Positions 3,871 to 63,755 of a stretch of DNA of 64,000 nucleotides are shown in pieces (the first letter of the stretch is position 1; each line of letters starts with the position of its first letter). The notes under the pieces are model-generated. The model was not told where the DNA came from. It saw only the letters and a list, made by a program, of their open reading frames with translations, and did not search any database. Position numbers and translations under genes: made by a program. This DNA is from Eledone cirrhosa (Eukaryota): assembly GCA_964016885.1 (NCBI GenBank), contig OZ024744.1:71672001-71736000 (forward strand). Reading direction: 5' to 3'.

Positions 3871-3921
3871 AGTTTCAGAAGATCCCATTAACGGTGAAAG
3901 CAGCGATTCTTTGCTTAAACT
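3871..3921 (+). ncRNA. Type I hammerhead ribozyme, family A (core CAGAAGA, U4A)
   Basis: AGTTT-CAGAAGA-t-CCC attaa CGG-t-GAAA-GCA...TGC-TT-AAACT. Stem I is AGTTT/AAACT and stem III is AGCA/TGCT. Homologous copies at 38977-39027(-) and 41343-41393(+). Confidence 0.7.
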
Positions 3922-4324
3922 TTAATCTGTTATTTTAACACACACACACACACACACACACACACACACACACACACACACACACACACACACACACATA
4001 TATATATATGTATATATATAAAACGGAAGATGTCTGTCTGGTGTGTGTATGATTTTTATGCATTTCCACATTTCTCTACCGATTTTGATGATTTTTTTAC
4101 AATGTGCTCCAAATTTACCAACGATGGTCAACGCGTAATAAACTTTGCAAAAAATCTCCTGCTTCTATGAAAAAAATCGATAAAACTAAATACATGCTGT
4201 AACCCTCTCTCTTACACGCTTATTCACTCTCTCTACTACCCAACAGCGACAAAACTTCGTTCAGGGACGCGACATCAACTTTGAAAACTAAACAACACAT
4301 CATTTTATGCAACAAACATAGTCA

Positions 4325-4650
4325 TAACGCTCTCTCCGTCGCTTTTCCCTCTCTCTACAATAGATCATTCCTCCTCTCTATAATTTAACTACTTTACTCT
4401 CTTCAAGCTTTGATGTTTAACACACCTCCCTATAGTTTCTTATCTTTACTCTCTCCGTCGCTCTTCCCTCTCTCTATAATAGATTATTCCCCTCTCTATA
4501 ATTTAACTGCTTTACTCTCTCTGTCTCTCTTCACTCTCTATATGACAGCACAGTTTTACACACCTCCCTATAGTTTCTTAGCTTTACTCTTTCAATCGCT
4601 CTTCCCTCTCTCTATAATAGATTATTCCCCCTCTCTATAATTTAACTGCT
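4325..4650. repeat. Internal imperfect tandem repeat of the Helitron (about 3 units)
   Basis: Recurring CTCTCTCTATAATAGATTATTCCCCTCTCTATAATTTAACTGC and ACACCTCCCTATAGTTTCTTA. Confidence 0.8.
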
Positions 4651-4883
4651 GGGGGAATCATTGGAGTTCCGTATTGACATACGGCTTTTCTGGGGTATTT
4701 TAAATTGGCTTAATGCAAATAACAACCCGCAAAATAACACTTCATATAACAGATTAATGCTATAGACAAATGAATCGGAATGTTTAAATTATTTATTTTT
4801 TACGACTTTCATTGGTTAAATATTAATATGACAACACCCATAGTGTTGTACTTCTGGCAATTCTGCCGAATACACTGCCAAGG

Positions 4884-5141
4884 ATGAACCTTTTCCCCTC
4901 GGCGTCAGATATCCCGTTCGATTTCCGGCGATCCCAATTCCCGTTGAGACCATGTTTTGCCATGTCCATTAACAAGTTACAAGGGCAAACATTGTCGGTG
5001 GTGGGGATCCATTTGGGGGAGCCATACTTCTCCCATGGCCAACTTTATGTTGCCTGTTCCCGTGTAAGGAGCAGGAATGGACTTTTTTCTTACACTCCTC
5101 AAGGGATGATACGCTATAGCGTCTACAAAGAGGTGCTATAG
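4884..5141 (+). pseudogene. Helitron Pif1-like helicase C-terminal fragment
   Basis: RRSQFPLRPCFAMSINKLQGQTLSVVGIHL...FSHGQLYVACSRV matches Pif1 motifs V and VI. Confidence 0.9.
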
Positions 5142-5504
5142 ATGTTGGTGCAGATGTTGGAGGTGTTGGAGCTATGCCGTCTGGAAAACTATTTCCTGGT
5201 AGGGTCACCTATGGCGGACAGATCTGACACCCAGCGGCATCAGGGCCACCATCTTGCAACTTTGGTCTGCTAAATTCGCTATTGGAAGATTATTAAACCA
5301 TCACTGATTGTCCAAAATGGTAATTGGTTCGTAACGTTTAATAACCGGTTCAACTGCTTTATCCACTTAATTGATAAGCTTATTCGCTTTCAAGCCACCT
5401 TTACCTGTATGTAACTTTTCATAGCAAATGAACAAACCCGAGCAACACCGGGCTAAACTGCTAGTATATATATAAATTTATATATATATTAATTATTTAC
5501 TCTA

Positions 5505-60439: not shown

Positions 60440-60841
60440 TCATTGGCCTCGATCCTCAGAAATGACGTTCTAAGATCAAATTCTGCTGAGGTCACCTCTG
60501 CCTTTCACCCCTTTGGGGTTGACAAAATGCTGTACCAGAAACGTATCGGAGTAGGTATAACCGACTTTTCCCTTTCTTCAAATTGATGGCTTTGTGTTTA
60601 ATTAAGGAATCCTTATTTTACAATAAAAGGGTCATGAATTTGCAGTATCCGTAGAGCGTCGGGCATCTAGCGTCGTGGCATATAGTTGCGTCCCTTTACG
60701 TTCTGATTCCCATCGAGGCTAGCTTTATCTTTCATCCTTACGGACTCGATAAAAATAAAGCACCAGTAACACACTGGGGTCGATTTTATCGATTTTCTCC
60801 TCTCCCAAAATTGTTGGCTCTGTGCCTAAATCAGAAACCAC
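60440..60841 (+). mobile_element. Two adjacent decayed SINEs (about 60440-60612 and 60630-60841)
   Basis: CTGCCTTTCACCCCTTTGGGGTTGACAAAATG and CTTTCATCCTTACGGACTCGATAAAAATAAAGCACCAG. Probable TSD TATTTTACAATA at 60614-60625 and 60842-60853. Confidence 0.8.
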
Positions 60842-61298
60842 TATTTTACAATAGAATACACACAATCTCTAAAAGAAGTATTGTGTTATCGTTGTTAGGT
60901 CCTTATTTATAGGCTTGCATGAGACCAGGTGTAGATTACTGAATAGCTGTATAGGAACCTACAGCAAAAATACGTAACTAAAGGCAGTTATGCAGATTTT
61001 CTAAGAATCTGATGGAAATGCCTGCGATTGAATGGTCATTTATCGAGATTCGATAGTACACCACTAGAGTGACTAAAGGTGGGTAAAAGCAAGCAAAGTA
61101 GGTGTCATATTCCAAGCCATTAGAGGGTGATGATTTCTTTGTAGAGGCTTAAATGTGAAGCGATCAATCACCAAAGAATTCGAACAGCAGCTGGCACTCT
61201 TTCTGGGCACTCATTATTAATAGATAATAGAATGCAGTTTGATGTATTGCTAAACACGACATTCCTGAAGAAACAAATAGCAAGTTTAAATAAATAAC

Positions 61299-61686
61299 TG
61301 TTTCTACTTTTGGCACAAGGCCAGCAATTATGCCAGTGTATTACTGGTACTTTATTTTATCGACCCCATAAGGATGAAAAGCAAAGTCAACCTCGGCGGG
61401 ATATGAACTCAGACCATAAAGAGCCGTAACTCTTTGCTGCAAAGCATGGCGTCCGACCCTCTACCGATACTGCCAATCCGCAGCCTGTTAAAATAAATAG
61501 CTCTTTCTACATTTGGCACAAGGCCAGCAGTTATCCAAGTGTATTACTGGTACTTTATTTTATCGACCCCCGAAAGGATGAAAGGCAAAGTTAACCTCGG
61601 CGGGATTTGAACTCAGAATGGCAAGGACCGTAACTCTATGCGTCAAAGCATGGCGTCCGACCCTCTACCGATACTGCCAATCCTCC
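61299..61686 (-). mobile_element. Two tandem full-length SINEs (about 61299-61487 and 61501-61686)
   Basis: Both match 1453-1637. AAATAAATA occurs at 61288, 61491 and 61687. Confidence 0.9.
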
Positions 61687-63559
61687 AAATAAATAACATT
61701 GAAAGTTGATGTGAAGAACTAGACTCAATTAGCAGTGTTCTCTCTCTCGCTTTTTTTTTTTGCAGAATACAATTGATAACTACCACCAAAACTGTTTCCC
61801 AGCACCACTAACACCAACACATAAGAGACTACTACTACAACAACTACTACTACTACTACTACTACTAATTATAATAATAATACTGTTGCTGATGCTGATA
61901 CAACAACAACAGCAACAGCAACAACGAAGAAACATACCCCCCCCCAAAAAAAATAGGAAAAAATTACGCACAAAAAAATAGGGAAAAAGCGAAAACAAAA
62001 TAAAAAATAAAAATAGACAAAAGTCAAAACGAACGCAATATCAACAAACATATCAACAACATAAAACAAATAAATACAACAACAATAAACAATTGAAACA
62101 TCACCTCTTCCCCGCCATATTGCCCCTCCCCCATACAGCCGTCACCAAAAGGATAAAAACAAAAAAAAAACAAAAAAAAAACAAACAGATAAAAAAAAAT
62201 ATCAGAATAGAATGTATAAAAATAACAATAAAAAACATAAAAGAGACATTCATCAAGTATAAAAAAAAAAATGAATAAACAAAACAGTATATATATATAT
62301 ATATGTGTGTGTGTGTGTGTATGTGTGTGTGTGTATGTATGTATGTGTATATATATATATGTATATATATATATTCATATAAATGTGTGTATATATTTGT
62401 ATTTGTGTGTATATATATATTAATATATATACATATATATATATGTGTGTGTGTATATATATATATATATATATATATATATACACAGTTATATATATAC
62501 AGTTATTTGAAGCTATTAATTAACCTGGTTTTTTTATGTACCAATAACACCTAACATTTAGTACTTTTAGTAGCTTAGTTATAAAAGAGGCGAACTTACA
62601 CACACACACACACACACACACACACACACACACAGATTCTCCCTAAATACTCAAATATACACACAAACGTATACAGATCAGTCATTCACAGACACATACA
62701 CACACACGTATCCAAATATATATATATATATAATATATATATTATGGTATATATATATATATATTTGTGTGTGTGTATATATATATATATATATATATAT
62801 ATATATAATAGTGTTCTACATTGATGTATAATACGATATATTTATGTATAATAAACATCCTTCAGCTTCACTATGACTTTTTAATAAGCCGTGAATATGT
62901 CCCTGCTATCGTAGCTACAAAGGGAGAGAATCCTGATGGAGCCGTATAATATGTGTGCCTTTTTATGTGTACATATGTATACATATAATAAAATTAAGAA
63001 AATAAACAAAAAGCGGACAACGAACGAAAAGAAAAAAAGCAAAATGAAAACACATTTTTTGAAGAGGAAATTTTTTTTAATAAGAAGAAAAACGAAAGAC
63101 AGAACACCAGATTCTTCAGCTGCCAAGATGGACTTTCTAGCAGTTTCAACTCCCACCAAATGTACTGCTGGTCCACCCCGGGTCAAAGCGACTGGCATAA
63201 ACCAAAGTGCTGTCCCTGGAGTGAAAGACAAGACAGAACAAAAACTTACAGCAATTAAGCAATAACAGGCATACATGGGATTTCATGTGACGACTTAGCA
63301 GAAGGTATTGTGCTTTTTATATAACGTAGACTCGTGAAGAACAGAGGTAAAGAAAGAGAAAAGAAAAAAGAAAGGAAAAAAGGCATGTAGAAGAAAGTAA
63401 GATGTATTAAAAATGTATTTCATTACGTATACATACGCACACGCATACATACACACAGGTACCTACCTACATACATACATACATACATACATACATACAT
63501 ACATACATACATACATACATAATACATACTTACATATATACATATTTATATATGGAACT

Positions 63560-63755
63560 GTTATTTTTATCTAAAAACATTTTTTCCAGTTCTACTCCGC
63601 CCGTAACTTCAATCTATCTTATTTCACATTCTTTCTTCTAATGAAGGACTAGTGTCCGAAACCTTAAGACCTTCTTCCTGCTATTTCAAGCGTTAACATA
63701 ATATATTCCTTTCATGTACTGTACCGATTGTGCTGTTATTACTGTTTACCTTTAA
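63560..63755 (+). mobile_element. Solo family G pLTR with HHR (63634-63669, G5A lesion)
   Basis: Homologous to 22575-22772. Confidence 0.85.

Follow-up and report, generated by a model that had tools for sequence, protein, structure and literature searches.

A 64-kb stretch of the Eledone cirrhosa genome (contig OZ024744.1, positions 71,672,001 to 71,736,000 of a 2,996-Mb assembly; hereafter the window) had been described from its letters as holding about 35 hammerhead ribozyme motifs of about 17 unrelated families, and the question that it raises is whether so many motifs are genuine and, if so, what carries them and at which level they matter. The window is AT-rich and microsatellite-laden, and contains retroelement debris comprising broken Penelope-type reverse transcriptase (RT) and GIY-YIG endonuclease remnants, pieces of long interspersed elements (LINEs) and one mariner piece. 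Our answer, to which we assign a probability of roughly 0.85, is that the motifs are type I folds of at least 19 repeat families, likely all residing in the terminal repeats of Penelope-like retrotransposons or of their non-coding derivatives, that they would cut the element's RNA in active master copies, and that the genomic copies are mostly short truncated insertions decaying neutrally.

Census of hammerhead copies in the window

Copies and their decay grades were obtained from profiles of 36 distinct families, a 310-nt array family described below standing outside these counts. From the window the profiles recovered 51 type I hammerhead copies, which represent 19 families; 38 are full-length and 13 are halves, so that the earlier count was real but slightly low. 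With "intact" denoting retention of the family core and of all scored proximal pairs, 10 of the full-length copies were intact, whereas one pair was broken in 9, the stems were broken in 3 and the core was mutated in 16. The same profiles, which were partly trained on the window's own copies, found 0 copies in 5 shuffled windows. A profile-free descriptor tolerating the 9a bulge, a 10.1/11.1 mismatch, departures from the core at positions 4 and 6 and an extended stem II gave 12 matches (that at -13124 being doubtful) against a mean of 0.42 (maximum 3) in 50 local dinucleotide shuffles; a stricter descriptor tolerating the 9a bulge gave 6 against 0 in 40 local shuffles, and one barring both the bulge and the mismatch gave 1 strict match. 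The shuffled control proposed in the preliminary description thus came out in favour of the motifs.

Since many of the sites described earlier were missed by the descriptor scans, homologs were sought in 800 kb of the genome and in search loci. They were present for all 16 of these sites tested and, in a separate search, for the 17th (family C), and the family consensus was a type I hammerhead in every case (that of D from 2 copies, that of O annotated by hand). All 17 coordinates listed earlier hold a hammerhead-family copy, those at 8131, 11460, 16765 and 24613 on the minus strand; they represent 16 families (24613 and 25350 fall into two subfamilies within a single family) but omit a clean copy at 18345(-) and another copy at 52263(+). 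The families are partly related, as exemplified by 34548 and X_L039, contrary to the earlier statement. Rfam gave no match at the gathering score in the window or in four array loci, and no hammerhead at E<=10 in two window sub-stretches; Rfam-based annotation thus misses the whole set. The Rfam E-value matches, among 150 of the 296 listed, were microsatellites matching microRNA models and were rejected.

The family consensuses all displayed the type I topology, as had been claimed, with the core, three stems and an NUH site. At the family level the core read C3-U4-G5-A6-N7-G8-A9, G12-A13-A14-A15.1 and U16.1-H17, with H, A and P departing: among the 19 window families, 13 cores were canonical, 3 were U3-A8, and H (U4C), A (U4A) and P (U4A + A6U) deviated. 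Three helices surrounded the core, helix I being open, with the support of covariation, although helix I of family D was weak. Stem III of the 17 window-seeded families was an exact palindrome in 7, a G-U near-palindrome in 3, a short mismatched palindrome in 1 and a hairpin of 9-66 nt in 6; the AACGTT described earlier is the 4-nt ACGT followed by U17. Furthermore, 9 of these 17 families had a mismatch at 10.1/11.1, and several carried stem II domains of 35-70 nt. The minimal Penelope form (9a bulge, G10.1-C11.1, palindromic stem III) was found in full in I and P and partially in C, most families being otherwise built. The copies are given below with their strand, a dot marking features without a single strand.

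3864..3930 (+): family A, core CAGAAGA (U4A), U.U at 10.1/11.1, 17-nt hairpin III, one broken pair; C3 3876, predicted cleavage site after 3916
5686..5740 (-): family G (U3-A8), core mutated
8125..8186 (-): family B, canonical core, one broken pair; C3 8175
9556..9614 (+): family C, intact, 193 nt past GIY-YIG end 9363; C3 9568, predicted site after 9602
10445..10500 (+): family D (U3-A8, ACCGGT palindrome), one broken pair; few-copy consensus, weak stem I
11450..11508 (-): family E, stems broken, in 419-nt tandem repeat 11192-12169
11869..11927 (-): family E, stems broken, second unit of the 419-nt tandem
12412..12470 (+): family E, core mutated
13749..13818 (+): family F_13760, C3 mutated; family with strong stem II covariation
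14727..14754 (+): family E, 3' half
15187..15245 (+): family E, C3 mutated
15606..15661 (-): family G (U3-A8, ACCGGT), intact, divergent partner of the copy at 16251
16251..16306 (+): family G, intact; U3 16264, predicted site after 16293
16756..16820 (-): family H (U4C), intact, one arm of 467-nt inverted repeat 16720-17869
17769..17833 (+): family H, one broken pair, other arm of inverted repeat 16720-17869
18262..18358 (-): family Q, canonical core, 8-bp hairpin III, intact; C3 18345, predicted site after 18277
20699..20798 (.): family X_L047 (U3-A8), two 3' halves back to back; likely the half-motif family F of the preliminary description
22642..22697 (+): family I, one broken pair, of the classic minimal type with 9a bulge, G10.1-C11.1 and ACGT; 424 nt past GIY-YIG end 22218
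22838..22936 (.): family X_L047, two 3' halves back to back
24118..24250 (.): family J, + copy 24166-24250 intact, with a long stem II; it overlaps a 3' half that lies inverted on -
24607..24703 (-): family K, long stem II, ACTAATTAGT, one broken pair
25132..25306 (-): family K, two 3' halves
25342..25427 (+): family K, scored intact; C3 25355
25858..25943 (+): family K, one broken pair, 516 nt downstream of the copy at 25342
30665..30706 (+): family I, deletion spanning GAAA and cleavage site
34340..34397 (-): family L, 5' part lost or mutated
34537..34595 (+): family L, stem III broken
35804..35862 (-): family C, intact, 194 nt past GIY-YIG end 36056(-)
37262..37320 (+): family C, intact, inverted partner
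37696..37783 (.): family X_L047, two 3' halves back to back
38192..38255 (+): family M, A14 mutated
38615..38673 (-): family C, C3 mutated
38968..39035 (-): family A (U4A), intact
41335..41401 (+): family A, one broken pair, 872 nt past coding end 40463
41467..41531 (-): family A, core mutated
41931..42745 (.): family K, three copies, 41931-42027(-) and 42649-42745(+) core mutated, 42174-42223(+) half
47442..47517 (-): family F_13760, core mutated
51739..51792 (+): family N, core mutated, 404 nt past GIY-YIG end 51335
52164..52250 (.): family M, two partial copies back to back
52251..52344 (+): family X_L035t, one broken pair
54023..54164 (+): family O, 9-bp stem I, 66-nt hairpin III, predicted GUC site after 54148, A9 mutated here
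57501..57555 (+): family P (family core CAGUUGA: U4A + A6U), G5 mutated here; 389 nt past GIY-YIG end 57112
63626..63680 (+): family I, core mutated

Family X_L047, the commonest motif-bearing repeat, is represented mostly by 3' halves joined back to back: the 1.29-Mb genome sample described below held 57 halves and 7 full copies, and a further locus is L047:4888. This suggests that truncation and inversion favour a point within stem II.

Several candidates were discarded before counting. About 30 descriptor matches came from a 32-bp minisatellite in locus L078, and a CCGTCGA-containing repeat (loci L200/L225) had no conserved structure and is probably LINE coding sequence; 21 of the 39 candidate clusters were removed as single-locus or AT-rich descriptor matches, and a repeat at 8044(-) and 44075(-) was not counted, its helix I being unconvincing. 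A common repeat with TTGCAAA ... GAAA and a hairpin, its helix I unconvincing, occurs at 7960-8065(-), 42887-42963(-) and 44013-44095(-), and may be one more diverged hammerhead (U3-A8 with A6C) or else a chance resemblance.

Covariation, decay and the probable Penelope-like carriers

The stems have changed in step. In the family O group (54035, long stem III), a comparison of 8 sequences showed two-sided changes in 8 of 15 pairs, with helix I among the stems affected; C3-G8 was swapped to U3-A8, and the covariation score was reached in 0 of 500 shuffles. Family F (28 distinct sequences of the 30 aligned, out of 60 found) had 46 alignment cells with double changes against 13.9 when shuffled, and 96% of its cells were paired against 35-55% when slid. 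Across all families with at least 4 distinct copies, stem variants common to at least 3 copies kept pairing in 34 of 57 cases as compared with 77 of 257 for private ones (p=5e-5), and shared double changes were compensatory in 11 of 12. The covariation looked for at the suggestion of the preliminary description was thus evident in families O and F as well as in the shared variants.

Private and shared mutations behaved differently with respect to the core. In 16 families, many of whose analysed loci were best matches to queries, private mutations occurred at 51 of 2838 core sites (1.8%) and at 195 of 9536 other non-CpG sites (2.0%; p=0.44), whereas the 168 core positions held 4 shared variants and the 525 remaining positions held 103 (p about 1e-9). 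Because private mutations strike the core at the background rate while shared ones avoid it, the copies appear to decay neutrally and the master lineages to conserve the core; since the core is avoided by lineage-defining changes, selection would act on transposing masters and not on host loci. Judged from sequence, the window motifs seem for the most part to be debris of retroelements, as opposed to a set of ribozymes at work for the host.

In families A, C, N and P, the motif lies inside the Penelope pseudo-long terminal repeat (pseudo-LTR), at a fixed distance past the RT/GIY-YIG gene. The spacing from GIY-YIG to the motif was ~190 nt for C (39 of 88 copies), ~400 for P (31/83), ~870-990 for A (5/39) and 373-602 for N (4/6); a weaker link was seen for family I, in one or two copies, and for X_L047, at ~1.1 kb. 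Of 681 full copies, 101 had a same-strand GIY-YIG match within 1.2 kb upstream, 16 had one downstream, and 37 had one upstream on the opposite strand. Seven of the Penelope coding ends in the window have a same-strand motif 190-980 nt downstream, and two do not. The coding remnants are as follows.

779..2889 (+): Penelope-like RT + endonuclease coding remnant, broken, upstream of family A
8905..9363 (+): remnant of a Penelope-like endonuclease, family C
21766..22218 (+): remnant of GIY-YIG preceding family I; an RT piece, 20978-21679(-), is inverted
36056..37025 (-): family C, remnant of the Penelope-like 3' coding region flanked by inverted terminal repeats
39459..40463 (+): family A, remnant of the Penelope-like 3' coding region flanked by inverted terminal repeats
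44398-45500: Penelope RT/GIY-YIG remnant, ~56% protein identity to family P
48357..51335 (.): Penelope-like insertion, inverted and 5'-truncated, family N
55332..57112 (+): Penelope-like RT + GIY-YIG, 5'-truncated, family P

No hammerhead was recognised in the 3' tail after the GIY-YIG end at 44964. A complete 3.3-kb family P element was identified in locus L317 (G000:C1:77742700-77747300, minus), with the motif at both ends of an RT-GIY-YIG frame bearing one frameshift; homologs of its RT carry RVT_1 and GIY-YIG, and a PDB search with the Penelope RT gave no match. Three further candidate motif pairs, two of family C and one of family A, turned out to combine separate insertions, and an open reading frame directly after the P motif was a spurious frame.

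Homology shared around the motif extended over a median of ~110-480 nt upstream and mostly 25-300 nt downstream. Among 352 sampled copies, 170 were solo; mates were divergent for 151 copies, in tandem for 58 and convergent for 40. Truncated-and-inverted insertions are reported for Penelope elements (bioRxiv 2021.04.23.441226), and the solo and divergent-mate pattern would, by analogy, represent such insertions.

Tandem non-coding units with one hammerhead each were also found: a decayed 419-nt pair in the window and units of 310, 467 and 528 nt elsewhere, together with a 549-nt spacing in family O. In particular, locus L101:3454-5802, ~40-46 kb before the window, holds five tandem 467-nt units, 99% alike, in each of which a canonical hammerhead with ACTAGT as stem III is intact; the family recurs with the same spacing in locus L071, and the array appears retrozyme-like. 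The 310-nt family, with a canonical hammerhead (ACGCGT), occurs on three contigs (L077:112-3603, 11 units; L215:8600-9750; L250:8850-9600), and is a good candidate for circular RNA.

Among the other mobile-element pieces in the window are a mariner transposase remnant (27447-27986), Tx1/L1-like LINE pieces with zf-RVT (7316-7915, 32070-33357) and RTE-like RT pieces (26100-26944, 45522-46754). The segment 4827-5141, which had no Pfam match, is presumably akin to a Helitron helicase fragment, and the dispersed short repeat at ~1486-1632, 6265-6411, 59181-59327 and 61284-61683 is a putative octopus-type short interspersed element.

Abundance and core variants across the genome

The genome sample amounted to 1.29 Mb, consisting of 70 evenly spaced 10-kb regions, which helped build the profiles, and 59 held-out regions (590 kb). 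The former contained 139 full copies, 58 of them intact; the latter contained 112 full copies (31 intact) and 56 halves, i.e., 168 copies against 0 in one shuffle. The total of 251 full copies corresponds to 1 per 5 kb, while the window, with 1 per 1.7 kb, is ~3 times denser; the one motif per 2 kb inferred previously hence describes the window but not the genome. At least 36 families were present in ~1.2 Mb.

Extrapolation from the held-out regions gave ~570,000 (430,000-710,000) full and 157,000 (96,000-223,000) intact motifs. Exact patterns, covering the 5' core, stem II and GAAA, and stem III for the X_L089 lineage alone, were counted over the whole genome, resulting in 25,548 matches for family A, 19,373 for C, 5,091 + 76 for P and 2,310 for the X_L089 lineage (52,398 in total), as opposed to 0 for the reversed-pattern controls. 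The sample held 35 matches to the A, C and P patterns against 21.5 expected and may run 1.6 times rich, whereas missed families, several of which were seen in the held-out regions, bias the figure the other way; we therefore set our estimate at 350,000-600,000 full-length motifs, about 100,000-250,000 of them intact. The very large complement anticipated earlier is borne out by this estimate, but half of the full window copies are decayed and selection was not seen at the loci.

The core variants have themselves been amplified. Family H is mostly U4C. In family A, position 4 was A in all 100 matches listed of 25,548, and A4 was also present in 2 copies of a sister family to O. Family P combines U6 with either A4 or C4 in its 5,091 matches, its subfamilies being 15-32% apart just downstream and stem II being compensated; its 76 U4 relatives were U4/U6 in most cases and A6 in 7, and this small U4/U6 subfamily ruled out the idea that U6 occurs solely without U4. 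In the X_L089 lineage, unrelated to P, a hand count among the 100 matches listed of 2,310 gave 48 C4/U6, 34 canonical, 12 C4/A6 and 6 others. Moreover, a group with a 9-bp helix I and a 30-67-nt stem III (L207:4357, L155:2380-2525, L224:1800-1900, L050:2435-2576) switches among C3-G8, U3-A8 and U4A cores, and is likely to be active as a monomer, unlike minimal Penelope motifs.

In a pairwise scan of a type III hammerhead, all CUGA-turn mutants except the C3/G8 swap were weak (PMC9901934), and the natural variants in print include U3-A8, U4C, A6C and the U.U mismatch (PMC3088659, PMC4209133). Neither U4A nor A6U was found as a natural hammerhead variant in the literature searched, with Lunse 2017, several supplements and figures lying outside the search, and the strings U4A and A6U do not occur in the text of PMC3088659, its figures again lying outside. 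The A4 and U6 families would be slow folds, dead folds with another role, or folds rescued by their context. U4A also yields a pyrimidine-rich CAG resembling a splice acceptor in families A and P (window 41320-41350 and 57505-57565), as read from the sequence only; family P also has an ATG overlapping A9-9a-10.1 and, ~45 nt further on, a sequence resembling a splice donor. In Drosophila virilis, helix I marks the end of a Penelope intron (PMC4209133).

Proposed role, alternatives and comparison with known systems

The motif would most likely cut the element's RNA out of long or tandem transcripts. Families whose stem III is a palindrome of 4-10 nt, with no hairpin energy, are predicted to cut as dimers of two pseudo-LTRs in tandem transcripts, those with a hairpin stem III (A, M, O, Q and X_L047) could cut as monomers, and the A4 and U6 families are predicted to be slow. 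Short-stem-III Penelope hammerheads reportedly cleave as dimers via the palindromic stem III, as Lunse, Weinberg and Breaker are said to have described in 2017 (reviewed in PMC6765202); stem III is suited, on modelling, to the dimer cleavage put forward in the preliminary description, but about a third of the families have a hairpin III and would need no dimer. Reverse transcription probably starts near the element's 3' end, usually stopping or inverting early, and the motif sits near where the shared homology ends, at a distance of tens to a few hundred bases; short insertions would therefore retain the motif, which would account for the motif density, the back-to-back pairs and the halves. 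The fold would thus matter for the element's replication and not for the host at each site.

Several observations weigh against this interpretation. The predicted minimum-energy fold was the full hammerhead only in some copies, such as 8130-8183, while those at 38972, 24169 and 54026 mispaired the core or stem II, and stem III of family C is predicted to form no stable self-duplex (+1.4 kcal/mol). No consistent Penelope coding neighbour was seen for 13 of the 19 families (B, D, E, F, G, H, J, K, L, M, O, Q and X_L035t) with window-derived queries and 17 outside ones, which represent few clades, on short loci. In an anole element the ribozyme is active, yet cleavage was dispensable for insertion in vitro and no RNA ends were reported at the site (PMC11167929). 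In addition, the motifs go unmatched by the Rfam hammerhead models, and shuffle controls on related sequences overstate significance. The proposed pseudo-LTR origin stands for A, C, N and P, with single-copy evidence for I, and we infer a terminal-repeat location for the 13 unlinked families; the earlier interpretation as a whole is partly supported.

It is quite conceivable, if somewhat short of an even chance, that many of these 13 families are non-autonomous retrozymes, short non-coding units processed to monomer or circular RNA and mobilised by Penelope enzymes, which would be compatible with our preferred reading and alter the carrier alone. The tandem one-motif units, the family O spacing and the shared homology of just a few hundred bases agree with this possibility, as does precedent (PMC7229834; bioRxiv 2026.07.22.740005), whereas most copies are solo (170/352) or in divergent pairs (151/352), like truncated Penelope insertions, and the protein queries cover solely the clades present in the window. 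For the variant families (A4; A4/U6 or C4/U6), we entertain more tentatively that they are catalytically dead or nearly so, the fold surviving as a signal by which the element's protein binds or primes, or else the changes serving an overlapping signal such as a splice acceptor. This would fit the poor performance of CUGA-turn mutants in vitro (PMC9901934), the rate of A6C (<0.1 per min; PMC3088659), the dispensability of cleavage for insertion in vitro (PMC11167929), the spread of Naiads without hammerheads (bioRxiv 2021.04.23.441226) and the CAG created by U4A; it is harder to reconcile with the C4/U6 subfamily, which lacks the CAG, and with the divergent U6 subfamilies, which keep G5, G8, A9, GAAA, NUH and a compensated stem II, a retention partly forced by the search pattern, although the divergent subfamily was first found by BLAST. 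The opposite and bolder view is unlikely in our estimation: that this genome holds more hammerheads than any reported in the literature examined and has repeatedly rewritten the CUGA turn (A4 in three lineages; U6 in two, mainly expanding with A4 or C4) in retroelements with thousands of copies, these being active natural ribozymes despite a core that mutational scans place near death, rescued by dimer context or by the element's protein.

That the host adopted the motifs as working RNA-processing switches seems very improbable: many of the at least 100,000 intact motifs would land in introns or untranslated regions, and a few could be co-opted, but private mutations hit the core at the background rate and 19 of the 38 full window copies are decayed; a small conserved subset would escape the core-mutation test. 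Fortuitous matches to so short and degenerate a motif in repetitive, AT-rich DNA, to which we give practically no credence, do arise with a loose descriptor, as the L078 minisatellite and the probable LINE coding stretch illustrate; for the families they are excluded by the shuffles, the reversed-pattern controls (0 against 52,398) and covariation, D being the least secure.

Penelope hammerheads cleave weakly in vitro, and cleavage was dispensable in the one reconstituted system. This genome amounts to a natural experiment, offering at least 36 families, neutral copy decay set against master constraint, and sisters differing at core positions 4 and 6 (canonical, U6, A4/U6, C4/U6); comparing such sisters could tell whether the element needs cutting or the fold alone, and could widen the known hammerhead core. 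The at least 100,000 intact motifs could also cut host transcripts running through them. The literature search found no survey of cephalopod hammerheads, the supplement of PMC7229834 and one file of PMC4209133, which may list counts or core variants, lying outside it; a term search of the available text of a 2026 Octopus vulgaris repeat annotation (PMC13282606) gave no mention of hammerhead or ribozyme. The kind of motif is known; its scale and the amplified U4A (25,548 matches) or A4/C4 + U6 families (two lineages) were not found in the literature examined.

The closest known systems are the metazoan Penelope-like pseudo-LTRs, whose hammerheads are minimal with a short stem III (Cervera and de la Pena 2014, PMC4209133) and are reported without a defined loop 1. 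The present families resemble them in being type I, in the palindromic stem III, in the many families per genome and mostly solo or opposite-strand copies, in the U3-A8 variant and in the terminal-repeat position, and families I and P share the 9a bulge and G10.1-C11.1. They differ in the 10.1/11.1 mismatch (9/17), the hairpin stem III of up to 66 nt (6 families) and the 35-70-nt stem II (several), and A4, C4 and U6 are absent among those of the representatives listed there that were examined. The numbers are likewise unlike: 2,000-9,000 per genome were counted in that study, and >6,000 motifs in 16 families in coral and 126,247 in axolotl (PMC7229834), compared with our estimate of about 100,000-250,000 intact copies, a rough comparison as methods differ. 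Animal non-LTR retrozymes (PMC7229834; bioRxiv 10.64898/2026.07.22.740005) share the tandem 310-550-nt units with one type I hammerhead each, but most copies here stand outside arrays, and several units are longer than the reported 170-400 nt. Finally, the natural core variants of PMC3088659 have counterparts here in U3-A8, U4C (there from a viroid), the U10.1.U11.1 mismatch and a change at A6 (A6C); those are rare single examples, whereas in this genome U4A and A6U have become fixed in families whose copy numbers run from the thousands into the tens of thousands.

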